Shown in pieces: positions 2,224 to 63,017 of a DNA stretch of 64,000 nucleotides (positions are counted from its first letter, which is position 1; every line of letters begins with the position of its first letter). The DNA comes from a virus (lineage: Duplodnaviria; Caudoviricetes). Both the position numbers and the translations under genes were made by a program. A model generated the notes under the pieces. The model was not told where the DNA came from. It searched no databases and was given only the letters and a program-made list of their open reading frames with translations. Location of the stretch: the IMG/VR virus record IMGVR_UViG_3300022752_000013; one strand, given 5' to 3'.

Positions 2224-2807
2224 TGCCAATTGTGCTTGAACAAACTGCCAAAGGCGAGCGCAGTTACGATATCTACAGTCGTCTATTAAAAGACCGTGTG
2301 ATCATGCTGGACACAGAAGTGAGCGAACACACAGCCAGTCTGCTGGTAGCACAAATGCTGTTTTTGGAAAGTGATAACCCTGATAAAGATATTTCCTTGT
2401 ATATTAATTCGCCAGGTGGAAGTGTAACAGCGGGCATGGCCATTTATGATACCATGCAGTTTATTCGCTGTGATGTACAAACTATCGTAATGGGACAGGC
2501 CTGCTCCATGGGGTCGTTGTTGGCCACAGCAGGAGCCGCAGGCAAACGTATGATCCTGCCCAATGCCCGACACATGATTCACCAGCCATCAGGTGGTGCT
2601 TCAGGACAAGCCACAGACATCCAAATTCAAGCACGTGAAATTCAAAAGATGAAAGAGTATCTTACCAACATCTATGTCAAACACAACACAGCAGGCAAAG
2701 ACTACGATGTACTGAGTGCAGACATGGAACGTGATTTCTTCATGAGTGCCCAAGAAGCAGTGGACTATGGTTTAGCAGATCGAATCATCAATCAACGTGA
2801 CCAATAA
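2211..2807 (+). CDS. clpP: ATP-dependent Clp protease proteolytic subunit
   Basis: [29 protein letters not shown] (Ser), MIHQPSGG (His), MERDFFM (Asp). Confidence 0.97.
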
Positions 2808-4077
2808 TTTAAAAAACAATTTTTGTCCCAGCCCGTGGTTCCATATGAGAATCAACAATGCCGGGCATTATGAATACTGTCGTTGGGCGGCAACAGATCA
2901 ACGCTATTCTGCTGACAATATCTACAACATAACACCAGTTGAGTTTTTTCAACAACGCATGACCAGTGTTAGACAAGAGTTAGCAACAGGTAATTCACCT
3001 CCTGGTTGTGCAAAATGCACACAGATGGAACGTCACAACAAAATCAGCGGACGACAAAAACAACTGCTCAAAGCAGGTGTTAGACTTGAACATTTTGAAA
3101 AGACTCTAGCATCATCGCCGTGGTTGACAGAATTTGCCCAAGGTGGCGAGACAACACAAATGCCCCAGGATTGGCAAATAGATCTTGGCAACTATTGCAA
3201 CGGTGCCTGTGTATTTTGTAGCCCACATTCAAGTTCGCGCCTGGCGTCGGAGTTTAAAAAGATCGGCATCATCAATGATCTACCACCTGCAAACTGGACC
3301 GACGATCCTGTGCGGGTTCAACAGTTGGTTGATACCTTGATCTCAAGTTCACACATACAATACTTGCATTTCATTGGTGGTGAAACACTGATAACTCCCG
3401 CATTCAAAACCATACTTGAGGCTCTGATTCAAGCCGGCTTGAATCGCACGGCCACAATTGGGTTTACTACTAATCTAGGCGTATGGCGCGATGATGTGGT
3501 TGAACTGTTGACCCAATTCCAGGGAGTGAATCTTGGCATGAGTGTGGAGAGTTTTAAGATTGTGAATGACTATGTGCGTTATCCTGTGTGTTTGCCCACT
3601 GTGTTTGAAAGTATGGAACGTTGGTTAGAAATAAGTCAGCAACAAGATTGGTTAGTGCAGTTTAGAACCACGCCCACAGCACTCACAGTTGGTCACATGC
3701 TAGGAGTATATGAATATGCCTGGCACCACAACATTGCTGTGGAAAGTTGTAATTTTTTAAACAAGCCTGAGTGTTTGCGCCCATCAGTTCTGCCTCTGGA
3801 ATACAGACAACGCATTGTGTCCGACCTTGAAGCCTGGATAGACCAGCATCCGGTTGGCAGCGATGTGGTAGTAAACATTCGTGATCCAAATGTAGCCCAA
3901 CAACAAATTGTACAGGATCTACAGAGTTATGTGAATTATCTCAAGGCCGAATCGGATGAAAGTTGGCGTCTGCCAGACCTAGTTGAGTATTTGAAAAGAC
4001 TGGAAGCCAATCGTGGCAACTCAATTGTAACTTATTTGCCTGAATATGAAGAACTTTTTACAACTGCTGGATACTGA
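2797..4077 (+). CDS. Radical SAM protein with N-terminal SPASM/twitch-like Cys domain
   Basis: CNGACVFC (CxxxCxxC), FIGGETL, FTTN, N-terminal CPSPW...YC...CAKC. Confidence 0.88.
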
Positions 4078-4781: not shown

Positions 4782-6005
4782 ATGATTGTGCCAAAAATTT
4801 GTTGTTTATTAATGTGTCTAGCACTTGTGGCCTGTGGGGGCGGGGGTGGTGGCGGAAGCAGTGGGACTCCTGCAAGTTCTGCATCTATTGCCGTGAAAAT
4901 AATCAATCAAGGCACTGCAATACATAACAACAAGGTCAAAAACTATGCGGTGGGAGATTTAAACAACGATGGACTTGATGATGTGGTAATTGGGGGGTGG
5001 TCAGGATCTGGGACCTCGTATCTTGCAATTATGATACAAAACTCCAACGGAACGTTAACAGAGCGCACCACAGAACTATTAGGCAGCAACTCTTACCCGG
5101 GCAGTGGTCACATTTTTATTTGGGATTTTGACCACGATGGCCATGCGGATATATGGCTACCGGGTGCTGATGATTTTGTTAGTTCTTCTAACAGTCTAAT
5201 GTTGTGGGGTAGCGCCGCCGGAACTTTTAGTAAACAAACCTTCAGTGAATCCATGTCTAGTGCCGGTGCCTGTTTATTTGATCTCAACAACGACGGCAAC
5301 ATGGACATGCTGGTTCGAGGAACCTACAATCGAAATACAAATACATACGGATATTACTTGAATCAGGGCAATAGAACTTTTACATTTGTTGCTGATCAAT
5401 ATGTAAATGGTGCCAGTGCATGTGCAGTGATACGTGATTCTACCACTGGGCATCTGGCCGCGATGCAAGGTGGCAACAGCCAAGGTGCCACTGCGGACGC
5501 CATTAGCATTGTTGATGCAAATCTTGGGTTGATCAAACTGATACCCGTTCCCAGACAAGACAATGCCATGGCCGGAATGATTGGGGTTGTGACAGCAGAT
5601 GTTAATGAAGACGGACTGTTGGATTTTATAACTCTATATGAGGCCTCTAGTGCAGGATTACCAGGACGCAAAGAAGTTTGGTTAAATCAAGGATCAGACA
5701 ATTTTTCCTATGCCTACGCTTTGGATACTGCCTATAACAGCAATGGAGATATTGTTAATTTTGTTTATCAAGGTATACAATATTACTTCTTTAATGGGCC
5801 CAATGGGGATGCTACATTTTACCAACTGGCCAATGGCGTTTTAAATCTTTATCAACGTGATACTTTTTTGAGCATGGCTCGATTGTTAGGAGCCAATCCT
5901 GGTGTAAAAGATTGGAGCGTGTTTTCTGCTACTGTATATCGTGGCAGTGAGGGGATTTATATACTTCAGGAGTTGAAATCGATATACTACACACAAAAAC
6001 TTTAA
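4782..6005 (+). CDS. FG-GAP/VCBS-repeat lipoprotein (beta-propeller-like)
   Basis: Lipobox LVAC plus poly-Gly linker; repeats GDLNNDGLDD, DFDHDGHAD, DLNNDGNMD, DVNEDGLLD. Confidence 0.8.
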   Translation: MIVPKICCLLMCLALVACGGGGGGGSSGTPASSASIAVKIINQGTAIHNNKVKNYAVGDLNNDGLDDVVIGGWSGSGTSYLAIMIQNSNGTLTERTTELLGSNSYPGSGHIFIWDFDHDGHADIWLPGADDFVSSSNSLMLWGSAAGTFSKQTFSESMSSAGACLFDLNNDGNMDMLVRGTYNRNTNTYGYYLNQGNRTFTFVADQYVNGASACAVIRDSTTGHLAAMQGGNSQGATADAISIVDANLGLIKLIPVPRQDNAMAGMIGVVTADVNEDGLLDFITLYEASSAGLPGRKEVWLNQGSDNFSYAYALDTAYNSNGDIVNFVYQGIQYYFFNGPNGDATFYQLANGVLNLYQRDTFLSMARLLGANPGVKDWSVFSATVYRGSEGIYILQELKSIYYTQKL

Positions 6006-12615: not shown

Positions 12616-12993
12616 ATGAACTTAGAAACTATCATAGCCGCCATGTTTACCGGAGTAGGATTTGGTGTGATTGTGTTCTTGCTATTTGTTTGGATAATAT
12701 CTCGACGAATCCAGTTTCGGATTGATTCAGAAATATCGGGTGTGATAGAAAAATTAGCCCAGGATCGACTGATAGCACTCACGGTGGAAATTGACAACAA
12801 TCAGTACTTCTGCTACAATGCACTTACCAAAGACTTTGTATGCCAAGGCTACAGTTTGAAAGAAATCATAGAACGATTTCGTCTGCGTTATCCCGACAAG
12901 GCCGCCGCAATATATGACGGCGATGAAACAGCAGTACAGACACTCAAATCTCAAATGGATCAACTTGATAAATCAGACACAGTGCAATCTTAA
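12616..12993 (+). CDS. Membrane-anchored hypothetical protein
   Basis: N-terminal TM helix; AAGGA RBS. Confidence 0.7.
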   Translation: MNLETIIAAMFTGVGFGVIVFLLFVWIISRRIQFRIDSEISGVIEKLAQDRLIALTVEIDNNQYFCYNALTKDFVCQGYSLKEIIERFRLRYPDKAAAIYDGDETAVQTLKSQMDQLDKSDTVQS

Positions 12994-14074
12994 AGGCACC
13001 CAAAAATTATTTTTTATCCAGTTAAATCAGGCTGCCTCTTGTTGTAGAAGTAATCTTGAATCGTTGCCGGCTGACATGTCAGACTTGCTTGAGCATTGGC
13101 AACTGGAACATGATCAATTGACACAAGGCATTGCCGTTCAAAATTGTTCTGTTTGTTGGAAACAACAGGCCCAAGGTCATACATCTTGGAGACAACTACA
13201 CGGTCACCAGAATAACAACACCGTTGAACTGTGGTTGAACAATTCCTGCAATCAAATGTGTAGTTATTGTAGTCCAAAATTCTCTAGCACTTGGCAACAG
13301 AATATCATTGACCACGGACCTTTTGAAAATATCAGTAGCACAGCCAAATCCAATCTTGACCTGCCACCAATAGCAATAGATCAGCAACAGTGGATAGAAA
13401 AAATAGGTGAATATTTACAATCTCAACCTCCAGAATCAGTTGATCTAAAGTTGTTGGGCGGTGAGCCCTTGATGCAGATTCGAAATTTACAAAAATTAAT
13501 TGATCTTTCTGGTAATAGTATAAATCAACTGATGATAAACACCAATCTCAATCCTCCCAACAATCGATTCCTGCATTGGTTATTGGACACAGTGCCTGCT
13601 TACAAACTCAAATTTGAGATAAGTCTAGACGCCAGTCCCAAATATAATCATGTGCCAAGAGCAGGATTTGATCCAGAACGATTCCATACCAATTTAGAAT
13701 TGCTGATTGAAAAAAATATAAATTTTGGTTTTTTGTCGGTTATGAGTGTGCTGAGTATTTTTGACTTGCCCGACTTTACGAAATGGTCTCAACCATATCA
13801 AGTGGCATTTAACAAAATCAACAATCCGGATTGCCTGGACCCAATTTGGTTACCAATGGAAATCTTAGACCAAATAAACAACCAGTTTGAGCAAGAACCG
13901 CCAATGATTTTCCAAGAATTATACAACAAGCCGCAATCTTTGGTTGACCTAAAATTGTTTGAGCAGTATAATTACTTGTGTCAGTATTTTTCTAGAACTG
14001 GCATAAACATCAAACAAATCGATAATCTCTTGTTCCAACAATATTGGACTTGGCTAGAAGAAAGACAAAAATGA
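12914..14074 (+). CDS. Radical SAM protein (start uncertain)
   Basis: CNQMCSYC, LLGGEPL, INTN, SCC...CSVCW N-terminal Cys cluster. Confidence 0.85.
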   Translation: MTAMKQQYRHSNLKWINLINQTQCNLKGTQKLFFIQLNQAASCCRSNLESLPADMSDLLEHWQLEHDQLTQGIAVQNCSVCWKQQAQGHTSWRQLHGHQNNNTVELWLNNSCNQMCSYCSPKFSSTWQQNIIDHGPFENISSTAKSNLDLPPIAIDQQQWIEKIGEYLQSQPPESVDLKLLGGEPLMQIRNLQKLIDLSGNSINQLMINTNLNPPNNRFLHWLLDTVPAYKLKFEISLDASPKYNHVPRAGFDPERFHTNLELLIEKNINFGFLSVMSVLSIFDLPDFTKWSQPYQVAFNKINNPDCLDPIWLPMEILDQINNQFEQEPPMIFQELYNKPQSLVDLKLFEQYNYLCQYFSRTGINIKQIDNLLFQQYWTWLEERQK

Positions 14075-26035: not shown

Positions 26036-26511
26036 AAGTAGAAGACTACAAAGCACTAGACTGGAAGTGGGAAGCAAATCCTATCGAGCAGTTAACAATT
26101 AATGGCATTGACCCTCTCACAACCTACAGTAGTGGTACAAGTCACCCTTCATACGGTGCTATACCCAATGTGTCCATTGGTGGTGGTAGTAATATCAGCC
26201 CAACTGTTTGGACTACAACTACTAACAATACTGGCGGATATACTTTTGCCAATCAAAACATTCAGCCCAACAACACAGTTCACATCAAAGGTGAAAACGC
26301 TGATCTCTTGATCAATGAAAAGAGTCTCAAGACCTGGATGGAGAAGGTTGAAGAACGATTGAACATACTCGCTCCCAATCCTGAAATGGAAAAGGAGTGG
26401 GACCAATTGCGTAAGTTAGGTGAGAGATATCGTAAGTTAGAGAAAAAATGCAAGGAAAAATCAGATATGTGGAACAAACTAAAGGCCATGCCTAAACCGG
26501 AGATCAAATGA
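25978..26511 (+). CDS. Hypothetical protein
   Basis: Low-complexity N-half; C-terminal LNILAPNPEMEKEWDQLRKL coiled coil. Confidence 0.75.
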   Translation: MANDQISLDEYLAQLNSRVEVEDYKALDWKWEANPIEQLTINGIDPLTTYSSGTSHPSYGAIPNVSIGGGSNISPTVWTTTTNNTGGYTFANQNIQPNNTVHIKGENADLLINEKSLKTWMEKVEERLNILAPNPEMEKEWDQLRKLGERYRKLEKKCKEKSDMWNKLKAMPKPEIK

Positions 26512-27284
26512 CACCCCGACAAAGAATCAAACACATCACCAAGTGGATCAAAGCCTACGCCCGGAGTGCCAAAATTGACACTTTGGTGGTGGGAATTTCC
26601 GGCGGCATTGACTCCAGTGTGGTATCCACTCTGTGTGCCGAAACAGGACTCAAGACCATTGTGGTTCAAATGCCAATCCGTCAAAATCGGAAACTAGATA
26701 ATCGTAGCAGTATGCAGGCCAACTGGTTGCTGGAACGTTACAAAAACGTCACCCATGTGAGCATGGATCTAACCCCAGTGTTCACATCATTTGAAAAGAA
26801 ACTTGAACCCATTTGCCGAGACAGCACGGACATAACCCTAGCATTTGCCAACAGCCGTGCTAGATTGCGCATGATGACTCTATATCAAATTGCGCAAAGT
26901 TATGGTGGAATTGTGGTAGGCACAGGCAACCGGGTAGAGGATTTTGGTGTGGGCTTCTTTACCAAGTACGGTGACGGTGGCGTGGACATCAGCCCCATTG
27001 GCGACTGCATGAAAACAGACGTTTGGGCTATGGGCAGTGAATTTGGTTTGCCACAAGAAATCATTGACGCAGAACCCACTGACGGACTCTGGGATGATGA
27101 CCGCACAGACGAAGGACAACTGGGCATGACCTATCCTGAACTGGAACGAACTATGTGGCTGGACGAGTCCGGAGACCAGTCTGTAACCAGTACAGAAAAA
27201 GCAAATCTTAAAAAGTATCGAGCAATTCGCGCCAGAAATCTGCACAAGATGGAACCAATTCCTGTGTGCAAAATATCTGAGTAA
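26508..27284 (+). CDS. nadE: NH3-dependent NAD+ synthetase
   Basis: VGISGGIDS, NSRARLRM, VGTGN..E...GFFTKYGDGGVDISPIGD..KT, EPTDGLW...TDE. Confidence 0.95.
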   Translation: MTPRQRIKHITKWIKAYARSAKIDTLVVGISGGIDSSVVSTLCAETGLKTIVVQMPIRQNRKLDNRSSMQANWLLERYKNVTHVSMDLTPVFTSFEKKLEPICRDSTDITLAFANSRARLRMMTLYQIAQSYGGIVVGTGNRVEDFGVGFFTKYGDGGVDISPIGDCMKTDVWAMGSEFGLPQEIIDAEPTDGLWDDDRTDEGQLGMTYPELERTMWLDESGDQSVTSTEKANLKKYRAIRARNLHKMEPIPVCKISE

Positions 27285-27366
27285 ACTACGCCGTTTACAC
27301 CAAAACGGTACCATTTTTGCCCGGTCTGAGCCCGGTTCTGCAACCCATTGAGTAAGTAAAACTACC

Positions 27367-27942
27367 ATGAAAGCACAAGTAAACCACATCAGCGATCAAA
27401 TCGCAATCTGGAGTTCAAGGGCGTTCCGAGTCGCAGGACTTTGGATCATTGCCCTTGCGGTGATCGCTGTATGCAATCACAAACTCAGCGAACTCCGCGC
27501 AGGTGTTGAAGCCATGCCAGCGGGCTATGTCAGCACTACAGAAAAAATCAAGCAACTGGAATGCTTGACTCGCAACATCTACTGGGAAGCAGCCTCGGAG
27601 CCTTTTGAAGGCAAAGTAGCAGTGGCCCAAGTCACAATGAACCGTGTGGCCCACGGAAAATTTGGTGATTCAGTTTGCGGTGTGATCTATCAAAAAAACG
27701 TATTCTATGAACGAGTAATTTGCCAGTTCAGTTGGGTGTGTGAAACCACACACAAAACTCGACCAGTACACCCGCCCTTGTGGGCAGAATCTGAATTGGT
27801 GGCCAAAAAAGTTCTATTAGAAAACTTTAGACTGCCCGGCTTAAAAGGCGCACTTTATTATCATGCAGATTATGTCAGCCCGGGCTGGAAACTGCCCAAA
27901 ATTGATAAAATTGGTCGTCACATCTTTTACGGAGAACGCTAA
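27367..27942 (+). CDS. SleB-like cell wall hydrolase (Hydrolase_2)
   Basis: CLTRNIYWEAASE...AVAQVTMNRV...CQFSW...ALYYHADY...IGRHIFY; TAAGTA at 27353. Confidence 0.92.
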   Translation: MKAQVNHISDQIAIWSSRAFRVAGLWIIALAVIAVCNHKLSELRAGVEAMPAGYVSTTEKIKQLECLTRNIYWEAASEPFEGKVAVAQVTMNRVAHGKFGDSVCGVIYQKNVFYERVICQFSWVCETTHKTRPVHPPLWAESELVAKKVLLENFRLPGLKGALYYHADYVSPGWKLPKIDKIGRHIFYGER

Positions 27943-28256
27943 TGCCTTTCAATCTGCCTGTCACAATCATTGCCATTCGTGACTACATTACCAACAGCCT
28001 GGCAACTCTTTCAGCAGACACTCTGGGCTGGTTGTCGGTCATAGTGTTGCATTGTGCAACCCTGCCCAGTTTCTTGGCCTTGATGACCGGACTGAGCGAT
28101 AAAACTCCGGGTCTGGACATGATCTTTTTCTTGTGGAGTGGCCTGATCCTGCTGTTCCTACGGGCAGTGGTGCTCCGGGACATGTTGAACATCATCACAA
28201 TTGGGTTTGGATTTATACTGCAAGCAGGATTCATGGCCCTGATCCTGTTTAAGTAA
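27942..28256 (+). CDS. Small 3-TM membrane protein (PQ-loop/SemiSWEET-like topology)
   Basis: Three hydrophobic helices; ATLP in TM1. Confidence 0.55.
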   Translation: MPFNLPVTIIAIRDYITNSLATLSADTLGWLSVIVLHCATLPSFLALMTGLSDKTPGLDMIFFLWSGLILLFLRAVVLRDMLNIITIGFGFILQAGFMALILFK

Positions 28257-28754
28257 ATGACCCCTGAAGAAATTGAACAAAAGTTAACTGACTGGATGGT
28301 TAACTTTGTTGAACAGCCTCACCCTGGCTTGGGTCAGTGGGCACCATGCCCTTATGCTAGACAGGCCAGAATTACTAATCAAATCAAGATTGTGCATAGT
28401 GGCCACCAAAGATTGATGGCCACAGTTGAACAACAGTTACCCGAGTTAGAATACAAAGAAGTTGTGGTCATTTGTTTTGATCATACCAAAATTTCTGCCC
28501 TGGATCTAGAAAAACTAATTAAAGTATACAACCAGCAGGTGCTGATGGCAAGAAACTATGTGATCCTTGAGGATCATCCGGATGCTGTGGAATTGGTCAA
28601 TGGTGTTCACATGAACTTTGGTCATTGTGGGCTATTGGTAATTCAACGACTAGACAAACTAACAACAGCAAGTGAACAACTCAAATCAAAAGGCTACTAC
28701 AATACCTGGAATCAGGCTGAACTGGATCAGGTGGTAACATGGCGAAGTCAATGA
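28257..28754 (+). CDS. DUF1415-like protein
   Basis: W..NFVE...PCPYARQA...LEDHP. Confidence 0.55.
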   Translation: MTPEEIEQKLTDWMVNFVEQPHPGLGQWAPCPYARQARITNQIKIVHSGHQRLMATVEQQLPELEYKEVVVICFDHTKISALDLEKLIKVYNQQVLMARNYVILEDHPDAVELVNGVHMNFGHCGLLVIQRLDKLTTASEQLKSKGYYNTWNQAELDQVVTWRSQ

Positions 28755-29179
28755 AATTTTGCAGAATCAATCTGTCAAAAACCAACTACAGTTATTATCC
28801 CGGTGCTGAACGATTTACCTGGGCCAGCGGCCTGGCACCATATGAACAGATCTATCGTGATTACTGTGCCCACAAACAGTTTGAGAGCGTGATGCCTTTG
28901 TTCTTGCAACAGTTTCAAGACTCACACAACGACACACATGTGTATCGGAATGGCACAGATATCGTGGCCTGGAGCCTGTGTCGACGCTGGGACAGTTGCA
29001 ATGCAGAAAGTCTACAGTTTGCCTGGAACTATCATGAACCAGAACTGGAACTGGGCAGACGCAGTCTTGAACATGAATGTGCCTACTACAAACAACTGGG
29101 TTATGAATATTTGTATCTAGGTCAAGCGTCTGAATACAAGACTCGCTTTGATGGTTACGAAGAATTAGGAAGACTATAA
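28751..29179 (+). CDS. Arginyl/leucyl-tRNA-protein transferase C-terminal (ATE_C/Bpt)-like GNAT protein
   Basis: LELGRRSLEHE...KQLGYEYLYLG...YKTRFDGYEEL parallels SLG..SIL.EI...G..Y.YLG...YK..F...E.L. Confidence 0.55.
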   Translation: MKFCRINLSKTNYSYYPGAERFTWASGLAPYEQIYRDYCAHKQFESVMPLFLQQFQDSHNDTHVYRNGTDIVAWSLCRRWDSCNAESLQFAWNYHEPELELGRRSLEHECAYYKQLGYEYLYLGQASEYKTRFDGYEELGRL

Positions 29180-29511
29180 TGGACTTGTATACAATCTGGG
29201 CAGATAAACAAGGTGACATCACTGACTTGGAATGGGTCAACGGAATGAAGAGTTTCTTTGATCACCTAATCTCAGAAGGTAAAATGGAGACGTACAGAAT
29301 TACCAGATGCAAGATGGGATTCCGTAGCATAGCAGACATGCCAGAATGGATGATCATCATGGAGTTTAAGGACATGGGTCAAATGGATTCAGCGTTCCGT
29401 CGTGTGGCTCCACTGGAAGGCGAATTGGAAGTCAAGCACAAAAGTTTCAACCAGTTTGTTTCGGGCAACATACAACACGCCTTGTTTAGAGACTGGCCCG
29501 ATCAGTTCTAG
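29179..29511 (+). CDS. DUF6614-like ferredoxin-fold protein
   Basis: MDLYTIW...YRITRCKMGF...EW.I.MEF...FRDWPD. Confidence 0.6.
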   Translation: MDLYTIWADKQGDITDLEWVNGMKSFFDHLISEGKMETYRITRCKMGFRSIADMPEWMIIMEFKDMGQMDSAFRRVAPLEGELEVKHKSFNQFVSGNIQHALFRDWPDQF

Positions 29512-29554
29512 TACTTTGGTATTACTTGACTAGGAATCATGTTTCTGCTATAAT
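29509..29554 (+). promoter_or_regulatory. Palindrome + sigma70 promoter, leaderless transcript
   Basis: TAGTACT-TT-GGTATTA 1 nt before TTGACT(29526)-17-TATAAT(29549); ATG 6 nt later. Confidence 0.8.
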
Positions 29555-30002: not shown

Positions 30003-30395
30003 ATGACCATGCACTTACATCACCCCAGTCTCAGCCTCAACGGTCGCAAGAAGGGCAAAGTAAAATTTCGTAATGCTGAAGAAGCACAACGTGCCCGTGA
30101 ACTCGATGCAAGTTGGAAAGAACTACTCAAACGCCAAGGCCTTGAGTTAGAAGAAAAGCGTCGCAAACGTGCTATGAAGGCCGAGCCCTTGGTATACAAA
30201 TTGTCCGCACCAGAAGGCCGTATGACCACGCATCATATTCCCAGTGTTGACACAGGTGGCAACGCCACCTTGGCACCGCCAAAAGTATACACAGGTACCA
30301 AGGTCAAAGGTATTGCTACCATGCACAAATCAAATGCTGTACCTGTGTTCTCAGACGAAGAAGCAGTAGAAATTTCCAGAATGCGTCGTGGATGA
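30003..30395 (+). CDS. Conserved basic phage protein
   Basis: GAGGA RBS; YTGTKVKGIATMHKSNAVPVF. Confidence 0.8.
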   Translation: MTMHLHHPSLSLNGRKKGKVKFRNAEEAQRARELDASWKELLKRQGLELEEKRRKRAMKAEPLVYKLSAPEGRMTTHHIPSVDTGGNATLAPPKVYTGTKVKGIATMHKSNAVPVFSDEEAVEISRMRRG

Positions 30396-30433
30396 TTAAA
30401 AAACGTTTATTAACCTATAAAGGAGATTTTGAA

Positions 30434-30826
30434 ATGGGTGGTATGTGGGAAAAAGATGAAGTGGTTCGCTTGCTCAGAAGCCAGCCTGGCACTCAATATC
30501 AAGAAGCAGATGATCAGGTCAAAGAACAAATACGTGAATGGATTAGAGGCCTATTACAAAACAGTGAAGCCACTGTGACATTCACCAAAGCAGATGGTAC
30601 CGACCGTGACATGTTGTGTACGCTGGATCACAGTAGAATCCCTGTTCGACCGGTAGCACCAACCACAAGTACCGCTCCAGTGGATGGCATTGTGCGTGAG
30701 AGTCGGAAACCCAAAAAAGAACCCGACCCGCACAGTATCCGTGTGTTTGATTTGGAAAAGCAGGAGTGGCGCAGTTTCCGTTTTGAACGACTCAAAAAGG
30801 TCACGGCTACCCTGGATTTCCAATAA
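30434..30826 (+). CDS. DUF2693/WYL-like Sm/SH3-fold protein
   Basis: VTFTKADGTDRDMLCTL...VFDLEKQEWRSFR. Confidence 0.75.
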   Translation: MGGMWEKDEVVRLLRSQPGTQYQEADDQVKEQIREWIRGLLQNSEATVTFTKADGTDRDMLCTLDHSRIPVRPVAPTTSTAPVDGIVRESRKPKKEPDPHSIRVFDLEKQEWRSFRFERLKKVTATLDFQ

Positions 30827-30836
30827 GTAATTGCTT

Positions 30837-31055
30837 ATGGCAAAAGAAGATATTATAAACATGGAAGGCCGTGTTGAAGAGGTACTACCGGCTACCATGT
30901 TTAGGGTCAAGTTAGACAACATAGACGCTCAGGTATTAGGACACTTGAGTGGGCGTATGCGCAAAAACAACATCAAGGTGTTGCTAGGAGATCGGGTTGA
31001 AATGGAATTTTCACCCTACGATCTTACCAAGGGTCGTATTACCCGACGCAAGTAA
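30837..31055 (+). CDS. infA: Translation initiation factor IF-1
   Basis: [26 protein letters not shown]...[33 protein letters not shown]. Confidence 0.96.
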
Positions 31056-31057
31056 AC

Positions 31058-32623
31058 ATGTATCATGTAAAATTAAATGATTCAACTGCTCGAGTACTAT
31101 TCCTTGGCAACAACAATGAATCTACAGATCATCAAGTGTCAACTCTGGCAACAGAACACGACATTGTCAATCATGGACTAGTAATCGAATCTAAGGTTGT
31201 TCATGACCAACCAGGATTTTATCATACCACTGTGGTAGACATTCCCTGGGGCGATTTAATTTCATTTGCATCAAAATTTGATTTGATTGTCATGTTAGAT
31301 CAGCCGCAGGCTCAATGGAGTCATTGGAAATGCATGCAGGCCACATTTAAGTTAATGGTCAAACTGGAACAAATGGGGTGTGATACTGTATTTCGTAACA
31401 ATAAAAATATTAAAAAAATCTTATATTGGTCCGACTTGGTGTACAAAGAAAACAAAAGTTTTTGTATATACCCATGGATTAATTTCTTCAATGACGGAAA
31501 AGAACTTAGATTATGTTCACGTGCTGACACTGCGGTGACCAAAATTGATCAATTTCAAGACTGGAAGTCTGATCCTAATTATACCCAAATTCGCGATTCA
31601 ATGTTACAAGGTCACAAACTGCCAGAACATTGCAAAGTGTGTTATGAGTATGAAGATCATGACATTGAAAGTTACAGGCAATTTGAAACCATGGACTGGG
31701 CAGTGCAATTGGATTTAGAAACAGTTGAAGATCTGGAGAAAATTCAACACCCTTATTTTTACGAAATTCACACAGGTAATCATTGCAACATCAAATGTAG
31801 AGGTTGTCAACCAGCGTTCAGTGAGCCCATTGGTAAAGAATTAAAAAAATTCAATATTGTCACACCCGGTACCATGATGTGGACTCCCAGCACGTCAACT
31901 CTAGATCAAATCAGCATAGACGACTTAGACAGCAAATCTACTGTTTATTTTCAAGGCGGCGAACCCACGATCATGCCAGAAGTTCTGGACTTTATGAAAC
32001 AGTGCATCAAGAAAAATCAGACAGATTTCAATCTCACCATGTGTACCAACGGAGTAAAATTTTCTGACGAATTTTTAGAAACAGTTTCGCATTTTCCCAA
32101 CACCAATTTTAGTTTCAGCATTGATGGGTACGCCAAGGTCAATGACTACTGGAGATCAGGATCCAAATGGGACCGAGTCATAGCAAATGCACACATGATA
32201 CAGAATCTTGGTCATTCTGTCAGTATTAACACTGTGCCGGGTATTTACAATGTGACCAACTTGCATCTGTTGTTTGAATTTTTAGATCGTGAATTCCCGT
32301 TTACTGCTATCTATCTACAAATCAATTACCTGGCTTGGCAGTCAGCATTCAATCATCCTCGTCAAGATCTAGTAGTTGAATCCATGCTCAAATGCATGCA
32401 GACATCTGTGTATCATTCCAATGGTAAAAGTTGCAAAAGTGGTATAGACAGCATTTACAATCATTACAACAATAATCCAGTTTGTGACCTCAAAGATCTC
32501 AAAGATTTTTTTGCATACAACGATCAGTTGGACCGTGCTCGCGGCACAAAACTAGCAGATTACATACCTGAATTAGAGGCCGCAAGAAGTTACATTTTGG
32601 AACTCAATCATGAAACCATGTGA
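31058..32623 (+). CDS. Radical SAM / twitch-domain protein with N-terminal extension
   Basis: FCIYPW...LCS...HCKVC; CNIKCRGC; FQGGEPT; CTNG; FSIDG. Confidence 0.88.
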   Translation: MYHVKLNDSTARVLFLGNNNESTDHQVSTLATEHDIVNHGLVIESKVVHDQPGFYHTTVVDIPWGDLISFASKFDLIVMLDQPQAQWSHWKCMQATFKLMVKLEQMGCDTVFRNNKNIKKILYWSDLVYKENKSFCIYPWINFFNDGKELRLCSRADTAVTKIDQFQDWKSDPNYTQIRDSMLQGHKLPEHCKVCYEYEDHDIESYRQFETMDWAVQLDLETVEDLEKIQHPYFYEIHTGNHCNIKCRGCQPAFSEPIGKELKKFNIVTPGTMMWTPSTSTLDQISIDDLDSKSTVYFQGGEPTIMPEVLDFMKQCIKKNQTDFNLTMCTNGVKFSDEFLETVSHFPNTNFSFSIDGYAKVNDYWRSGSKWDRVIANAHMIQNLGHSVSINTVPGIYNVTNLHLLFEFLDREFPFTAIYLQINYLAWQSAFNHPRQDLVVESMLKCMQTSVYHSNGKSCKSGIDSIYNHYNNNPVCDLKDLKDFFAYNDQLDRARGTKLADYIPELEAARSYILELNHETM

Positions 32624-33705
32624 TCTCAAGAGACGTATCACTTGTAGAAAATAATTTTATGTCAGCAACCGATTTACGCAAGCAATCTTTTTATAATTTC
32701 CAATTAGGTAAAATAGAGTTCTCCGCAGAAACAATCATACCTGCAACCGATGACATTGTTCCTTTTTTGAATTTATATGCAGTTTTGTATTATGGACATT
32801 TTCATAAACAAGTTTATATTGACAGATTTTTGCAGGTACGAAATCAATTAGTACAACAACTCATTGATTTGTCAGCATACAAGTCTTGTCAATGGTCGGA
32901 TCATTTTTTTGAGAATAGGGGTTCATATCAAAGTGCATCATTTATCATGTACATGTGTAGACTGGCCAGTGACACGGTATGGAATTTTCCTACATTGTGC
33001 AATTATAGTAAATGGGTAAATGGTGGTAGCAGGTCTGTGGCAACTGGCATGCATAAACGTGATCCGTGGAATAGTGTGTTGGGCTTCGAGTTAGTTGAAT
33101 TAGGGCAATCAAGCACCATGCTATCTGATCCCAAAGAAATAACATCCACTGAGATGTTGCACAATGTTCTACAATTAGATAACAACCCGCCACACGATTC
33201 AGCAAAAGTTATGTTAATCACTGAATTAATAAAAAATAAAATTTATTTTCTATCAATCGAAAACAAATTAGACAAGTTTGATAATTTTAGTAATATTAAC
33301 AGTTATAATATTTGGGATAGTTATTCCGCCTGGCGGAGTCAATACCCAATAAAACCAAAAATAAAAATATACACTAACTGGCCCGAACAAATACACAATT
33401 ACTTCGACGCTTGGGACATAGTAGAAATTGAGTCTGGCCAACACATCATTGATGAAATTCAAGGCTTTGGCGGAAGATCAGGAAGATTGGAACGCTTTGC
33501 AACCGAGGAATACCGAAATCCTAAAGAAATCGTGGACCATGTGTTGTATGTAATTGATCCTAGACCAATTGAACTTGGTGAGTTGTTGATATGGATGGAC
33601 ATGGAACACAATGCTTACATCGAATCGGAATGGAAGTTTCTTTTGTATAGAAAAGCAGATATCTACAAAACCACTTACATTGACACAAGTTATATCATGC
33701 AATAA
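32620..33705 (+). CDS. Hypothetical protein (AT-rich)
   Basis: 361-aa ORF, GTGA overlap; no motif recognised. Confidence 0.7.
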   Translation: MISRDVSLVENNFMSATDLRKQSFYNFQLGKIEFSAETIIPATDDIVPFLNLYAVLYYGHFHKQVYIDRFLQVRNQLVQQLIDLSAYKSCQWSDHFFENRGSYQSASFIMYMCRLASDTVWNFPTLCNYSKWVNGGSRSVATGMHKRDPWNSVLGFELVELGQSSTMLSDPKEITSTEMLHNVLQLDNNPPHDSAKVMLITELIKNKIYFLSIENKLDKFDNFSNINSYNIWDSYSAWRSQYPIKPKIKIYTNWPEQIHNYFDAWDIVEIESGQHIIDEIQGFGGRSGRLERFATEEYRNPKEIVDHVLYVIDPRPIELGELLIWMDMEHNAYIESEWKFLLYRKADIYKTTYIDTSYIMQ

Positions 33706-33712
33706 ATACAAC

Positions 33713-34255
33713 ATGCGCAAACACATCGATTTATTAGAAGCAACAACCCGTCCAGCCAAATTGGAAACAATCCCTTTGCCATACGGTGAAGACGACCTAA
33801 ATCCTGTGCTCAGCGGAGACAGTATCAATTATCATTATGAGCATTTGGCCAAGGGCTATGCCAAACGCTACAACGCCGGCGAAGGTGATTCAGATTTCAA
33901 TCGTGCTGGCAGTTTCTTACACAACAAGTTTTTTCCACAATTGCAACCTCCCAAAGGCAACAACCGCCCACGTGGTGCTGTACTGGAACTGATTGAACGC
34001 AAGTTCAAGAGTTACGAAAACTTCCAGGATGAAGTTAAAAAAGTCGCAATGAAGATCCAAGGTTCTGGGTGGGTGTATTTGAGCACCGGTGGTGAAATCA
34101 AAACCATTCGCAATCATGCAGTGCGTACAGATATATGCGTACTTATTGACTGGTGGGAACATGTTTGGGCCTTGGACTACCAGTGGGAAAAAGAAAAATA
34201 CCTGGACAATATCTGGCGTATCATCAATTGGGACGTTTGTTCTGATAGACTATAA
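33713..34255 (+). CDS. sod: Fe/Mn superoxide dismutase with extra N-terminal MRKHIDLLEA
   Basis: LPYGEDDLNP, ligands H(YEH), FLHN, DWWEH; IQGSGW; TAAATA 4 nt before ATG. Confidence 0.9.
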   Translation: MRKHIDLLEATTRPAKLETIPLPYGEDDLNPVLSGDSINYHYEHLAKGYAKRYNAGEGDSDFNRAGSFLHNKFFPQLQPPKGNNRPRGAVLELIERKFKSYENFQDEVKKVAMKIQGSGWVYLSTGGEIKTIRNHAVRTDICVLIDWWEHVWALDYQWEKEKYLDNIWRIINWDVCSDRL

Positions 34256-34267: not shown

Positions 34268-34588
34268 ATGAAACTAGAATCTGGCGCAGTTGAGAAACTT
34301 CGTGAACTTGTGGCTGAAGAAGGCAACCCTGATCTCATGCTCCGAGTGTTTGTGCAGGGTGGCGGCTGTTCGGGCATGAGTTATGGATTCACTTTTGACG
34401 AAATGCAAAACGAAGATGACTTTGATTTTGCCTACGAAGAGGTGAAGGTAGTGGTCGACTCCATGAGCATGCAGTACCTGCAGGGTGCTACCATTGACTA
34501 CAAAGAAGATATCATGGGCAGTAGTTTTGTAATCAACAATCCTCAAGCACAAACCACCTGCGGTTGCGGAAGCAGTTTTTCCGTGTAG
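34268..34588 (+). CDS. erpA: A-type Fe-S cluster carrier (ErpA/IscA/HesB)
   Basis: [38 protein letters not shown]. Confidence 0.93.
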
Positions 34589-34641: not shown

Positions 34642-36603
34642 ATGACTCAAGAAGTAATCGATATAGGGACTGCGCCAAATGACGGCTTGGGCGACCCACT
34701 GCGCGAGGCATTTGCCAAAACCAATAACAATTTCAGTCAACTTTTTGCCACCAGTGGTGTAAGTGGTATTTCCAATGGTTCTAGCAATGTAAATATTCCT
34801 CTAGTCAATGGAAATGTGGTTATTTCCTCAGCCGGCACTGCCAATGTGCTCACAGTCACTGGTACCGGCGTTAATGTAGCAGGAACCCTAAATTCGTCAG
34901 GACTGGCCACTCTCGGCAATCTCAGCGTGACTGGTACTGTGATCAGTACCGGAACAATTCAAGGTCTTGGCGCTGTGACTGCGGTCACGGTGACAGCATC
35001 GGGCAATAGTTCAGCCAACAACGCAATAGTCAGCAACTTGTTGACTGCGGGTCAACTGAGTTTGACCGGTAATATTGTGTCAGCCACAGTGACAGGTAAC
35101 ATTGTGGGCAGTAATATTGCAACCAGTGGGCTGGTGACGGCAACTGGCAATATCACAGGTGGTAACGTGATAACTGCTGGACAAGTCAGTGCTGTGGGCA
35201 ATATCACTGCGGCATTCTTCACAGGTAACGGTGCAGGTTTAACTGGTGTTGTTGCATCGGGCAACGTGGGTGCGGCAAGCAAATTGCTCAATGGCACCAG
35301 TGAAATGAATATTCCTGCCTCAGGCGGAAACATCGTTGGTAACGTGGCCGGTGTGACCAACGTCTTTACATTGACCACTGCAGGTTTGATCATTGCTGGT
35401 GTTGTGAGTGCAAGTGGCAATGTAACCAGTGGCAACTTGTTAACTGCGGGTTTGATAAGTTCTACAGGTACTGTTACCGGTTCAAGTTTATTGGGTTCAG
35501 TTGTATCTGTAACTGCCAACGTAACTGGTGGCAACTTGTTAACTGCGGGTTTGATAAGTTCTACAGGTACTGTTACTGGTTCAAGTTTATTGGGTTCAGT
35601 TGTATCTGTAACTGCCAACGTAACTGGTGGTAACATCACAACAGGTGGGCTGGTATCTGCGTCTGGTAACGTCGCAGCCACATATTTCTTGGGCAATGGC
35701 GCTTTACTAACTGGTGTGATCACTTCAGTTGCTAATATCAATTCAGGCACAAGTAATGTTGTTATTGTGAGTTCAGGTGGCAACGTTGCAGTTGGAGTTG
35801 GCGGGACATCAAATGTGGCTGTGTTTGCTACATCAGGAGAATATGTAACAGGCGTAGTAAGTGCGTCAGGCAACATCACGGGTGGTAACTTGATCACAGG
35901 TGGCCAAGTATCAGCCGCTGCCAACATCACTGGTGGTAATATTTTAACAGGTGGCTTGATTAGTTCTGCTGGTAACATTACATCAATTGGACTTACCACA
36001 ATCGGTGCTGGTGGAGCAATTTCAGGCACAGGCAATATCACTGCTGGTAATTTCTTAACCAGCGGATTGATCACAGCCACCGGTAACATCACTGGCGGCA
36101 ACTTGACTGTGGGCACTGGCAATGTAACTGCAGGCAACATTGTAAACGCCAATGGCAATGCTGTGGGCAACATTGGATCATCCAGTAATTATTTCAATCA
36201 GGTGTTTGCTCAAGCAACCACAGCATTGTATGCTGACTTGGCCGAGGTATATTCAGCAGATGCTAAATATTCTGCAGGTACTGTGGTTGTATTTGGTGGC
36301 ACCCAAGAAGTGACCGTAAGTACCGTAGATTCCAGTCGCAGAGTGGCTGGGATAATATCCGAGAAACCCAGTTACCTAATGAACTCCGGACTTGAAGCAG
36401 AACATTGTGCTGTGGTAGCACTGACTGGTCGAGTGCCCACTCAGGTAATTGGTCCAGTGGTCAAAGGCGACATGATGGTTTCAACCAGTAGTGGTCGGGC
36501 CCGTGCAGAAGCCGAACCAATGTCGGGCGCTGTTATTGGCAAGGCCTTGGAAGATTTTGACGGCGTAGAAGGCACAATTGAAATTGTGGTAGGAAGACTG
36601 TAA
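34642..36603 (+). CDS. Tail fibre/spike protein 1 (gp9/gp10-like N-terminus, G/N/T repeats, peptidase-G2/chaperone-like C-terminus)
   Basis: IDIGTAPNDGLGDPLREAFAKTNNNF; GNITGGN repeats; YADLAE...VALTGRVP. Confidence 0.8.
   Translation: MTQEVIDIGTAPNDGLGDPLREAFAKTNNNFSQLFATSGVSGISNGSSNVNIPLVNGNVVISSAGTANVLTVTGTGVNVAGTLNSSGLATLGNLSVTGTVISTGTIQGLGAVTAVTVTASGNSSANNAIVSNLLTAGQLSLTGNIVSATVTGNIVGSNIATSGLVTATGNITGGNVITAGQVSAVGNITAAFFTGNGAGLTGVVASGNVGAASKLLNGTSEMNIPASGGNIVGNVAGVTNVFTLTTAGLIIAGVVSASGNVTSGNLLTAGLISSTGTVTGSSLLGSVVSVTANVTGGNLLTAGLISSTGTVTGSSLLGSVVSVTANVTGGNITTGGLVSASGNVAATYFLGNGALLTGVITSVANINSGTSNVVIVSSGGNVAVGVGGTSNVAVFATSGEYVTGVVSASGNITGGNLITGGQVSAAANITGGNILTGGLISSAGNITSIGLTTIGAGGAISGTGNITAGNFLTSGLITATGNITGGNLTVGTGNVTAGNIVNANGNAVGNIGSSSNYFNQVFAQATTALYADLAEVYSADAKYSAGTVVVFGGTQEVTVSTVDSSRRVAGIISEKPSYLMNSGLEAEHCAVVALTGRVPTQVIGPVVKGDMMVSTSSGRARAEAEPMSGAVIGKALEDFDGVEGTIEIVVGRL
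35429..35630 (+). repeat. 99-bp tandem duplication within fibre 1
   Basis: Two copies differing only at 35478/35577. Confidence 0.92.
36190..36264 (+). repeat. 75-bp block shared with 38572-38646 of fibre 2
   Basis: 53 nt exact, then 2 mismatches (both third codon position). Confidence 0.9.
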
Positions 36604-36613
36604 GGAAAATATT

Positions 36614-36754
36614 ATGAGTTTATCAATTGGATCAGGATGGCAAATAGGATCTGGGTGGGTACTTCAAGGAGGCACACCCAGCGGTAGTTATATTACCACT
36701 ATAAGTGGACTTTATATTACCACGCTCGCGGGCGACAAATTTATTACAATTTAA
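36614..36754 (+). CDS. 46-aa Gly-rich microprotein
   Basis: MSLSIGSGWQIGSGWVLQGG...; AAGGA RBS; fills the gap between fibre genes; not in ORF track. Confidence 0.7.
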   Translation: MSLSIGSGWQIGSGWVLQGGTPSGSYITTISGLYITTLAGDKFITI

Positions 36755-36765
36755 GGAAATAGAAA

Positions 36766-38985
36766 ATGGCAGATACAACCATATCGGGATTAACCAATAC
36801 CAACACCATCGATGGTGCTACAGTAGTCCCTGCTGACTACAGCGGCGCAACTTACAAGGTAACAGCAAACACTCTAGGAAGTTTTATAACAACCAATGCG
36901 GTGACTGTGACTGCTACTGGCAATATCACCGGTGGTAATTTGCTCACAGGTGGACTGATCAGTGCCACTGCCAACGTGACTGGTGGTAATATAAGAACTG
37001 GCGGATTGATTAGTGCTACTGCCAACATCACCGGCGGTAATTTGCTCACAGGTGGATTGATTAGTGCTACAGGCAATATTACAGGTGCTTACATTGTGGG
37101 CAATGGGTCATTATTGACTTCAATTCCAGCAGGTAATATCACTGGACAAGTTGCCAATGCATTGGCTGCTGGCACAGTGTATACCAACGCACAACCAAAC
37201 ATTACTAGTGTTGGTTCTTTAACTTCACTCACAGTTAGTGGCAACACACAGTCAGGTAATTTACTGACTGGAGGCTTAGTATCAGCCTCGGGCAATGTGA
37301 CTGGTAACTATATTTTTGGTAATGGCGCTTGCTTAACAGGCGTTATCACTTCGGTCGCTAATATCAATTCAGGCACATCAAACGTCACAGTGGTAAGTTC
37401 AGGCGGCAACATCAGTGTTGGTGTAGGCGGAACATCGAATGTAGCAGTATTTGCCACCACAGGCGAGTATGTAACAGGTATAGTCAGTGCCAGTGGCAAC
37501 ATCATATCATCAGGCAACGTGTCAGGTGGTAACTTGTCAACAGGTGGCCAAATAAGTGCCAGCGGTAACATAAACACATCTGGATATTTTGTGGGTAACT
37601 TTGCCGGCAATATTTCTGGTAACCTAACAGTTCCTGGGTCAAACACACAGGTACTCTTTAACTCTAATGGTAATGCAGGTGCCGCCTCCGGATTGACTTT
37701 TGCGTCAGATACTAATTTATTGAGTGTCACCGGCAATGTCTTGGCCAACAATGGCATGTTTACCAACGTTGTGAACGTGGCCAGTCATACAGGTGCCGTG
37801 GTGAGTGTCACAGGCAACGTCACAGCCAACAATGGCATGTTTACCAACGTTGTGAACGTGGCCAGTTTCACTGGTGGTCTTGTTTCTGTTACAGGTAACG
37901 TCACAGCCAACAACGGCATATTCACTAACATTGTGAACGTGGCCAGTTTCACTGGTGCCGTAGTATCAGTAAGTGGTAACGTAACTGGTGGCAACATCTT
38001 GACCGGTGGGCTAATAAGTTCAACCAGTACCATAACCGGCACAAGTTTCTTGGGTGCAGTAGTATCTACAACTGGCAACATTACCGGTGGAAACGTCACT
38101 CTAGATACAGGCACAGGCAATTTATATGCACACGATGCATCTTTTGGTGGAGTCGTAAGTGCCACTGGCAACATATCTGGTAGTTACATCCTGGGTAATG
38201 GTGCTTTGTTAAGCGGAGTTATCACTTCAGTTGCTAATATCAATTTGGGTAATAGTAATGTTACTGTGGTCAGTTCTGGCGGCAACGTTGCAGTTGGAGT
38301 TGGCGGAACATCGAACGTAACTGTGTTTGCTACTTCAGGTGCATACGTAACTGGTATAGTAAGTGCATCGGGTAACATCACAGGCGGTAATATTGTTACG
38401 TCCGGTGCCGGCGGAGCAATTTCAGGCTCGGGTAATATCACAGCCGGTAATTTCTTAACAGGTGGACTGATCAGCGCCACTGGTGCTATCACAATCAATA
38501 GTGGTAATGCTGCCACTGCCATTATAAATGGTGCCGGCAATGCAGTGGGCAATATCGGATCATCCAGCAAGTATTTCAATCAGGTGTTTGCTCAAGCAAC
38601 CACAGCATTGTATGCTGACTTGGCTGAGGTATACTCAGCAGATGCTGAGTACGCTCCTGGTACTGTGGTGAGTTTTGGCGGCGATCAAGAAGTTACAAAA
38701 TCTATCACACCCAGCGACCCAAGAGTGGCTGGTGTAATATCAGAGAAGCCCAGTTACTTGATGAACTCAGGACTTGATGCTGAGCACCGTGCCGCAGTGG
38801 CTCTAACCGGGCGTGTGCCAACCCTGGTTATTGGTCCGGTGCGCAAAGGCGACATGATGGTATCTGCTGGCAATGGATGGGCACAAGCCTGTACAACACC
38901 AGCAATGGGAACCGTGATTGGTAAAGCACTTGTAAACTTTAATGGTGATTCAGGAATAATTGAAATAGTTGTAGGAAGAATGTAA
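36766..38985 (+). CDS. Tail fibre/spike protein 2, paralog of fibre 1
   Basis: Same repeat units and C-terminal YADLAE...GRVP domain. Confidence 0.8.
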   Translation: MADTTISGLTNTNTIDGATVVPADYSGATYKVTANTLGSFITTNAVTVTATGNITGGNLLTGGLISATANVTGGNIRTGGLISATANITGGNLLTGGLISATGNITGAYIVGNGSLLTSIPAGNITGQVANALAAGTVYTNAQPNITSVGSLTSLTVSGNTQSGNLLTGGLVSASGNVTGNYIFGNGACLTGVITSVANINSGTSNVTVVSSGGNISVGVGGTSNVAVFATTGEYVTGIVSASGNIISSGNVSGGNLSTGGQISASGNINTSGYFVGNFAGNISGNLTVPGSNTQVLFNSNGNAGAASGLTFASDTNLLSVTGNVLANNGMFTNVVNVASHTGAVVSVTGNVTANNGMFTNVVNVASFTGGLVSVTGNVTANNGIFTNIVNVASFTGAVVSVSGNVTGGNILTGGLISSTSTITGTSFLGAVVSTTGNITGGNVTLDTGTGNLYAHDASFGGVVSATGNISGSYILGNGALLSGVITSVANINLGNSNVTVVSSGGNVAVGVGGTSNVTVFATSGAYVTGIVSASGNITGGNIVTSGAGGAISGSGNITAGNFLTGGLISATGAITINSGNAATAIINGAGNAVGNIGSSSKYFNQVFAQATTALYADLAEVYSADAEYAPGTVVSFGGDQEVTKSITPSDPRVAGVISEKPSYLMNSGLDAEHRAAVALTGRVPTLVIGPVRKGDMMVSAGNGWAQACTTPAMGTVIGKALVNFNGDSGIIEIVVGRM
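37744..37975 (+). repeat. Three 81-bp (27-aa) tandem units within fibre 2
   Basis: GCCAACAA(T/C)GGCAT at 37744, 37825, 37906. Confidence 0.88.
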
Positions 38986-61080: not shown

Positions 61081-61388
61081 AAGATCAACGAGACCAACAG
61101 GTTATATCAAGTCTGATTATATTTTCTCTAGTCATTATGGTGATTCTGGCCATATCAGGATGTGCCACAGCAGTGCCTGTCACAGCAAAATTCCCTGAAC
61201 CGCCTGGCAAGGGTGCAATGACTGTGTGTCCTGACTTGCAAAAGTTAAAGGACAATGCTAAGTTAAGTGATGTGGCCAACACAGTCACTGTCAACTACAG
61301 TACCTATTATGAGTGTGCAGTAAAGACAGATGCCTGGCAAGAATGGTACCGCATACAAAAAATAATACATGAAGGAGCCCAAAAATGA
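61077..61388 (+). CDS. Outer-membrane lipoprotein spanin (Rz1-like)
   Basis: Lipobox LAISGC, Pro-rich FPEPP...CPDL, YYEC. Confidence 0.8.
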   Translation: MKDQRDQQVISSLIIFSLVIMVILAISGCATAVPVTAKFPEPPGKGAMTVCPDLQKLKDNAKLSDVANTVTVNYSTYYECAVKTDAWQEWYRIQKIIHEGAQK

Positions 61389-62995: not shown

Positions 62996-63017
62996 ATACA
63001 ATGTCAACGGAGAAATC

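Follow-up and report, generated by a model that had tools for sequence, protein, structure and literature searches.

What reaction is served by three overlapping viral genes, of which the middle one resembles an aminoacyl-tRNA transferase and its partners do not? The question is raised by positions 28257–29511 of a 64,000-nucleotide (nt) stretch of viral DNA (hereafter, the window) from the IMG/VR record IMGVR_UViG_3300022752_000013 (Duplodnaviria; Caudoviricetes). Three open reading frames (ORFs) follow one another there on the plus strand: gene A (28257–28754; 165 amino acids, aa), which carries the residues C31-P32-Y33; gene B (28739–29179; 146 aa), which is ATE_C-like; and gene C (29179–29511; 110 aa), a DUF6614 protein. 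The overlap is 16 nt between A and B and a single base (TAATG) between B and C. An earlier note, made from the DNA sequence alone, had described this coupled triad and the CPY motif of its upstream gene, both of which are present, and had proposed that the genes encode a split tRNA-dependent transferase. We propose that, together with a fourth gene, D, they constitute an arginine/guanidine tailoring module of uncultured freshwater jumbo T4-like phages, a reading to which we give slightly less than an even chance. The module brings known kinds of enzyme into a new, widespread, and virus-only combination.

The gene neighborhoods carry the first part of the argument. Eighty IMG/VR loci and nine metagenome loci were combined into a set of 89, representing 55 non-redundant lineages, and a gene was counted as a neighbor when it lay within 4 kb of B. 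Of the 55 lineages, 52 have A beside B, 39 have C, and 29 have D. The genes occur in at least eight orders and orientations, including A>B>C>, B>A<D<C<, A>B>D>C>, and B>A>, and this variety indicates that the linkage has been selected rather than merely inherited. A longer variant of B, of 235 aa, likewise has A (5e-51) and D (3e-89) on its flanks. A functional link among A, B, and C is supported by these observations, which describe a conserved enzyme module with the A–B pair at its core; D takes part in it in roughly half of the lineages. Inspection of 149 representative relatives revealed no protein in which B is fused to A, C, or D, and a complex prediction for A and B returned a score of 0.01, which counts neither for nor against their binding.

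Judged by its sequence, B belongs to the lineage of ATE/Bpt aminoacyl-tRNA transferases but has lost its N-terminal part, with the donor-binding GNAT core alone left. ATE_C is the only Pfam family matched by the window protein (E 2.8e-4), and all 25 aligned members of its family likewise match ATE_C alone (best E 1.8e-7), while the family profile recovers the K. lactis ATE1 from the PDB (E 1.1e-3). The protein contains LGRRSLEHECAYYKQLGYEYLYLGQASEYKTRFDGYEELG. Membership in this lineage and the loss of the ATE N-domain had both been anticipated in the earlier note, the former from the motif LG..SL..E...LGY.YLYLG...YK..F, whose residues are real and two of whose spacers are longer than written. 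In Pfam, ATE_N has no match in B at E values up to 1, nor in the relatives of 225–265 aa. Residue 5 of B aligns at residue 58 of these longer forms, leaving the last strand of their N-terminal extension in place. An exhaustive profile search recovered 180 relatives of B, among them the 225–265-aa forms, whose N-terminal extension is devoid of Cys; 197 relatives are word-indexed.

The residues of klAte1 were mapped onto B by a hidden Markov model (HMM) alignment read with the published klAte1 numbering (PMC9351520). Ser273 and Glu277 of the arginine pocket, the latter of which binds the arginine side chain, and the active-site residues Tyr303 and Lys304 correspond to S109, E113, Y133, and K134 of B, which are conserved in 87, 82, 90, and 88 of 90 B sequences, respectively. 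In the aminoacyl pocket, formed in klAte1 by Ser255, Ser273, Glu277, and Tyr289, two of the four positions are ATE1-like in B and two are mixed or Bpt-like. At the Glu position shared by ATE1 and B, the Leu-specific Bpt carries Gln, and the conserved Glu113 suggests a basic donor residue.

The AlphaFold2 model of B (predicted local distance difference test, pLDDT, 92.5) comprises a single GNAT domain, which matches 206 PDB representatives at Z ≥8, mostly GNATs. Its end-to-end matches are C-terminal donor-binding GNAT domains, namely those of FemX (Z 14.5), MprF (14.2), L-PGS (14.0), and Sbb17 (12.6), and A-PGS is also matched in Foldseek. Such matches lend weight to a role in the cell envelope, in which B would aminoacylate a peptidoglycan precursor or a membrane lipid like FemX or MprF/aaPGS, in connection with lysis or with a block to superinfection. 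However, the sequence places B in ATE_C rather than in FemAB or DUF2156, and FemX/MprF-type enzymes need two GNAT domains where B has one. In addition, the Z-scores fall gradually and grade into those of ordinary acetyltransferases, which are nearly equal (VipF, 14.4; MAB_4324, 13.2). The chance of an envelope role appears slim to us.

The same near equality of acetyl-CoA enzymes and tRNA-dependent ones bears on another explanation, namely that homology is misleading here: B would be an acyl-CoA-dependent or non-catalytic GNAT and A a non-heme Cys protein, with some unrelated function such as anti-defense. Both window proteins also lie under their Pfam cut-offs (B, 21.9 bits vs 25 for ATE_C; A, 21.6 bits vs 24.5 for DUF6875). 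Against this explanation, the CoA pyrophosphate loop Q/RxxGxG/A between β4 and α3 is absent from B, which reads L103-E-L-G106-R-R108-S109, with Leu in place of Q/R and Arg, Glu, or Lys in place of G/A, following the ATE pattern LG..S. Furthermore, the ATE-specific motifs, including Tyr-Lys, are near-invariant in B, and the features of A described below speak for heme ligation.

On the evidence of its model, A is predicted to be a small Cys-ligated heme monooxygenase with the fold of AglA/YqcI-YcgG and cytochrome P422. The AlphaFold2 model (pLDDT 91.7) is a sandwich in which a four-stranded sheet is flanked by helices. Its sole clear match in the PDB is AglA, at Z 7.8–8.1 with 143–149 residues aligned (for 9ub3, Z 8.0 and a root-mean-square deviation of 3.8 over 147 residues), and the next hit scores 4.1–4.3. 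AglA is a YqcI/YcgG enzyme with a Cys44-ligated heme that N-hydroxylates the guanidine of an arginyl amide (PMC12866846). A profile of A searched against PDB sequences retrieved nothing meaningful, and Foldseek of A against the PDB gave no hit below E 0.02. In Pfam, residues 8–59, the N-terminal third that spans the Cys-Pro pair, match DUF6875 (PF21780) at E 2.5e-4, and 16 of 24 family members match it at E <0.01. DUF6875 has recently been renamed cytochrome P422, a thiolate-heme family whose ligand lies within RxGxVCP (bioRxiv 10.64898/2025.12.11.692455). Against the AlphaFold database (AFDB), the model of A matches clusters named DUF6875 and DUF1415 (E 1e-9 to 1e-4); the DUF1415 likeness that had been suggested for A finds its counterpart here, among structural matches only and not in the Pfam scan.

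Cys31-Pro32 is invariant in 24 + 7 sequences of A, down to 25% identity and including cyanophage homologues (25–29%); 401 relatives of A are word-indexed. This invariance, combined with the unique fold match to AglA, argues for heme ligation in A. CPY is accordingly best read as a Cys-Pro heme-ligand motif with Cys31 as the candidate axial ligand, and it fits such a ligand better than the metal site of ATE_N. A was considered as the missing half of a split ATE and rejected in this capacity, since AglA is the sole clear PDB match of its model. The split transferase of the earlier note is consequently not upheld: B is a single GNAT domain of the ATE/Bpt lineage, and A is AglA-like rather than ATE-like.

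C matches Pfam DUF6614 (PF20319) over residues 1–109 at E 6e-22, with 78.3 bits vs a cut-off of 25, in agreement with its first assignment. Its Atlas clusters are 98–100% viral. A profile of C finds no solved relative among PDB sequences, and the secondary-structure pattern indicates that the fold is probably β-α-β-β-α-β. Anti-Druantia activity has been assigned to a DUF6614-like protein of another phage in a preprint (bioRxiv 10.1101/2024.04.14.589459), an assignment that adds to the case for an unrelated, anti-defense function of the locus. Weighed with the missing CoA loop of B and the invariant Cys-Pro of A, we regard the chance that homology misleads as small.

D (62003–62995, plus strand, 330 aa) is an L-arginine-type amidinotransferase, recognized with the HMM of the neighbor family at E 1.7e-84. 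The profile of its family matches StrB1 (2.4e-42), AGAT (~1e-40), and both HsvA and SxtG (1e-36 to 1e-35), and its catalytic residues H173, D175, and H310-C311 are invariant.

Three features together favor arginine/guanidine tailoring as the function of the module: B has a Glu in its pocket, A has the fold of AglA, and the chemistry of D depends on arginine. In the proposed scheme, B would transfer arginine or another basic residue from tRNA to the amine of an acceptor. A would then oxidize the substrate or the product, probably by N-hydroxylation of the guanidino side chain, and D would make or move a guanidino group, with C as a putative accessory protein. The acceptor may be a small metabolite or a sugar- or polyamine-like amine, which we favor over a protein N-terminus. 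A more specific version is conceivable, although we hold it with considerable doubt: B would carry out tRNA-dependent arginylation of a non-protein acceptor (a metabolite, glycan, polyamine, or nucleic acid), and A would N-hydroxylate the product to yield a hydroxyguanidine antimetabolite or nitric oxide donor, or a new hypermodification of the virion or genome.

Several observations weigh against arginine/guanidine tailoring, in addition to the sub-threshold Pfam scores of the window proteins. In this window, D sits 33 kb from A-B-C. Of the P422 motif RxGxVCP, A retains CP alone (L-G-x-W-x-P-C-P), and the P422 relatives of A act on tryptophan, so that A by itself does not compel an arginine theme. 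In B, the first pocket position (klAte1 Ser255; position 91) is Ala, Ser, or Cys, with Ala in 37 of 90 sequences, as in Bpt, and Leu predominates at position 125, again as in Bpt, which leaves the pocket mixed. B is moreover acidic (isoelectric point 5.9), which is unusual for a tRNA binder. We infer heme binding, tRNA use, arginine specificity, the order of the steps, and the acceptor; for heme binding by A and for tRNA use and specificity of B, the basis is remote homology at 10–15% identity to solved structures. Finally, genomes with the module also encode ClpS, ClpA, and ClpP, which would fit protein tagging.

Protein tagging would make B the writer of an N-degron. B would place a destabilizing residue from aminoacyl-tRNA on protein N-termini, the phage ClpS, ClpA, and ClpP would degrade the tagged proteins, and A may oxidize the N-terminus first. 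All ATE/Bpt enzymes characterized to our knowledge have protein N-termini as their substrates, and in eukaryotes Cys oxidation precedes arginylation. Three complete related genomes (328–352 kb) and one that is 62% complete have B as their sole ATE/Bpt-family gene, and the same four genomes encode ClpS (E ~1e-24), ClpP, and a 753–778-aa ClpA-like protein with Clp_N. The complete related genomes would appear to carry the full reader and protease set of an N-degron pathway. The ClpS/ClpP/ClpA-like set is located in G002:C1 at 251889–252122 (locus L098), 255404–255946, and 179745–179888, and likewise occurs in G001, G003, and G004. The window itself encodes ClpP, as had been pointed out, at 2211–2807 (plus strand; Pfam CLP_protease, E 3.5e-80); two ORFs just upstream of it (230–1237 and 1234–2223) match no Pfam family.

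On other phage contigs, a separate clade of 254-aa ATE_C proteins is encoded directly after a Clp_N-AAA gene, and this clade may represent a true phage N-degron writer. On the phage-like contigs L094 (3225–5765) and L095 (462–2999), which carry DNA pol III alpha, a 499-aa Clp_N-AAA gene and a 69-aa ORF directly precede the gene for the 254-aa ATE_C protein, which exceeds the cut-off at 35 bits, and neither A nor D is nearby. The 69-aa ORF of L094 was considered as a ClpS and rejected, as it gives no ClpS match.

Nevertheless, we consider an N-degron function of B itself unlikely. Glu113 suggests a basic donor, and the residues recognized by bacterial ClpS are Leu, Phe, Tyr, and Trp, with Arg not among them. 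ClpS, ClpA, and ClpP never adjoin B (9 to >80 kb away), in contrast to A with its near-constant place beside it; B keeps company with genes for an arginine amidinotransferase and an oxygenase-like protein rather than with Clp genes, which counts against the earlier note's reading, and an N-degron pathway has no use for an amidinotransferase. The klAte1 pocket for acidic N-termini is located in ATE_N (PMC9351520), the domain that B lacks. Furthermore, B is absent from cultured jumbo phages that carry ClpS and ClpA, for example Atu_ph07 (PMC6102473). If B were an N-degron writer after all, these phages would be the first viruses to encode an entire N-degron system, from writer through reader to protease.

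The surroundings of the genes in the window offer further material for the envelope role, in which B would modify a wall or membrane component. A-B-C directly continue, with no gaps between, a cell-wall hydrolase gene of the SleB/Hydrolase_2 type and a small membrane protein gene. The hydrolase is endolysin-like (27367–27942, plus strand; Pfam Hydrolase_2, E 3.8e-24; PHROG endolysin, 1.1e-18) and opens a five-gene unit (27367–29511) in this lineage. A 104-aa hydrophobic protein follows (27942–28256, plus strand), with its start overlapping the hydrolase stop; it is possibly holin-like, is present in 4 of the 89 loci, and has no match in Pfam and PHROG scans. D in turn follows a weak GH19-like hydrolase gene (61385–62002, plus strand; 18.9 bits), so both halves of the module adjoin wall hydrolases in this genome. 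However, the Hydrolase_2 gene neighbors B in just 9 of the 89 loci. The region around D (60637–63560, plus strand) resembles a second lysis cassette, with a 147-aa membrane protein, a 103-aa lipoprotein-like ORF, and the GH19-like gene, and a DUF4337 membrane protein (62988–63560, plus strand; E 1.5e-30) follows D.

Nucleic-acid hypermodification is a further alternative to arginine/guanidine tailoring. In analogy to Mom, a phage GNAT that uses a charged tRNA (Gly-tRNA) to modify DNA (PMC13219725), B would move an amino acid from tRNA to phage DNA or a nucleotide, which A, D, and C would tailor. One lineage has A-B beside FolE and QueD, and radical SAM genes are numerous in these phages. However, the similarity of B to Mom is confined to the GNAT fold, with ATE_C as the sole match of B, no DpdA/TGT-like or DNA-binding partner is conserved next to B, and the FolE/QueD neighborhood was seen in that one lineage only. 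The likelihood of such a function is, in our estimate, very slight. On the 230-kb phage contig L008 (3230–8848), A-B-D lies between genes for GTP cyclohydrolase I and PTPS/QueD (7-deazaguanine pathway) and a faint radical SAM gene. In other lineages (L001, L004), B is found inside clusters of radical SAM/SPASM and Asp/Arg β-hydroxylase-like genes.

Relatives of B occur at 579 or more IMG/VR loci and also on metagenome contigs of up to 335 kb; metagenomes holding DNA of the locus come from lakes and fresh water in several studies, and a search of sequencing runs listed no RNA run that holds it. Searches of 50,697 cultured-phage records, by blastn with the locus and by tblastn with B and with C, gave no match, and a pattern scan of 185,579 prokaryotic species genomes, a method limited to the pattern, found no relative of B. 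Cultured relatives exist only for A (23–30% identity; cyanophages and HMO-2011-like podoviruses) and for D (S-SCSM2R and Campylobacter CP220-like phages). The distant homologues of A, which keep Cys-Pro and come without B, include those of Synechococcus phage Sf-CH11 (L090, 3995–4420), S-PM2, Syn1, S-RIM44, and HMO-2011; in these cultured marine cyanophages and podoviruses, they often follow a gene for a prolyl-4-hydroxylase-like 2-oxoglutarate oxygenase.

A literature search found no description of a phage ATE-like GNAT, of a phage AglA/P422-like protein, or of their pairing, and a survey of jumbo phages mentions ClpS and ClpP only (PMC7824862). If B does arginylate a non-protein acceptor and A does N-hydroxylate the product, A would be the first phage heme-thiolate enzyme and B the first ATE-family enzyme with a non-protein substrate. 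ATE/Bpt enzymes are known solely as writers of protein N-degrons, and a truncated, virus-only branch tied to an oxygenase and an amidinotransferase would broaden the role of the family. The AglA and P422 sandwich enzymes were described only in 2025, and small phage versions would provide a new source of compact oxygenases. After Mom, the module would be the second phage route by which charged tRNA is diverted from translation. Given the number of IMG/VR loci, the phage metabolite or modification that it yields may be of ecological importance in lakes.

The remainder of the window is phage-like, with genes almost all on the plus strand, among them a clamp-loader-like AAA protein, glycosyltransferases, and several radical SAM enzymes; no tRNA genes were found in its 64 kb. 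The upstream edge of the five-gene unit is marked by a candidate terminator-like hairpin with a T-run (27290–27309, plus strand), identified by a consensus scan only, after the NAD synthase gene (NadE-type PP-loop; 26508–27284, plus strand; E 8e-48) that lies directly upstream of the unit. This NAD synthase gene was considered as the PP-loop protein that neighbors C in other lineages and proved unrelated (E 0.027). Just 3′ of C, at the downstream edge, a sigma-70-like match is predicted (29526–29554, plus strand; TTGACT-17-TATAAT with TG; 11 of 12 consensus positions). The unit had been described as the end of a late operon starting from TAAGTA at 27353; the hexamer is indeed present, but the surrounding 12-mer is at chance level (6 matches vs 6.0 expected), and TAAGTA was set aside as a late promoter because the motif is not enriched in the window.

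Further downstream, a WYL_2 Sm-like protein (30392–30826, plus strand; E 1.6e-11) is followed by a 74-aa IF1-like ORF (30831–31055, plus strand), whose homologues in L003 and L006 are called eIF-1a and which is a recurrent neighbor of the module (18 loci). The radical SAM genes of the window number at least three (2797–4077, 12914–14074, and 31058–32623, plus strand). At the positions of the ORFs 33611–34255 and 34268–34588 (plus strand), the syntenic contigs L003 and L006 carry genes for Fe/Mn superoxide dismutase and IscA-type Fe-S assembly. Two large proteins of 653 and 739 aa, repetitive and rich in Gly, Ser, Thr, Val, and Asn, are encoded at 34642–38985 (plus strand) and are likely fiber or decoration proteins, and an FG-GAP repeat protein is found at 4782–6005.

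Among known systems, ATE1 and Bpt are related to B by sequence. B shares with them the ATE_C core motifs ES.QF.W.Y, LG..S, HE, Y.YLG, and YK..F.G. It differs in its length of 146 aa, compared with ~235 for Bpt and ~500 for ATE1, in its lack of ATE_N and hence of the Cys4 metal site and the pocket for acidic N-termini, and in its pairing with a heme-oxygenase-like gene. FemX and MprF/aaPGS are the highest-scoring structures, and B covers their C-terminal donor-binding GNAT domain; however, they are tandem GNATs whose first domain binds the acceptor, whereas B is single-domain and has no sequence-family match to them. Mom of phage Mu is likewise a single-domain phage GNAT for which the use of charged tRNA on a non-ribosomal acceptor has been shown, as is proposed for B. 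The two have no detectable sequence relationship, and Mom acts without partners, in contrast to B with its ties to A, C, and D.

The Trp hydroxylases of the P422 (DUF6875) family resemble A in the weak Pfam match, the AFDB structural matches, and the helix-sandwiched four-stranded sheet. They differ in length (180–300 aa vs 165 for A) and in the Trp-binding motifs Dx2(Q/H)x3K and MxGxF, which are not evident in A. D keeps the catalytic Cys, His, and Asp of AGAT, StrB1, SxtG, and HsvA, and differs from these in being phage-encoded and linked to the A–B pair. The nearest precedent for the module as a whole is the argolaphos pathway, whose cluster encodes the YqcI/YcgG enzyme AlpD (= AglA) together with the GNAT aminoacyl-tRNA ligases AlpF and AlpO (PMC8976061); argolaphos is also counted, in a preprint, among products with peptide bonds made by aminoacyl-tRNA-dependent ligases (PMC13622209). 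Its enzymes are larger (274 and 342 aa), its GNAT is of the Acetyltransf_6/Fem type and not ATE_C, and it belongs to a phosphonate cluster of Streptomyces, in contrast to the phage loci, which are without phosphonate genes. What the two would have in common, on the phage side as a prediction, is a GNAT that forms an amide from aminoacyl-tRNA and an AglA-fold Cys-heme oxygenase that acts on an arginyl guanidine.

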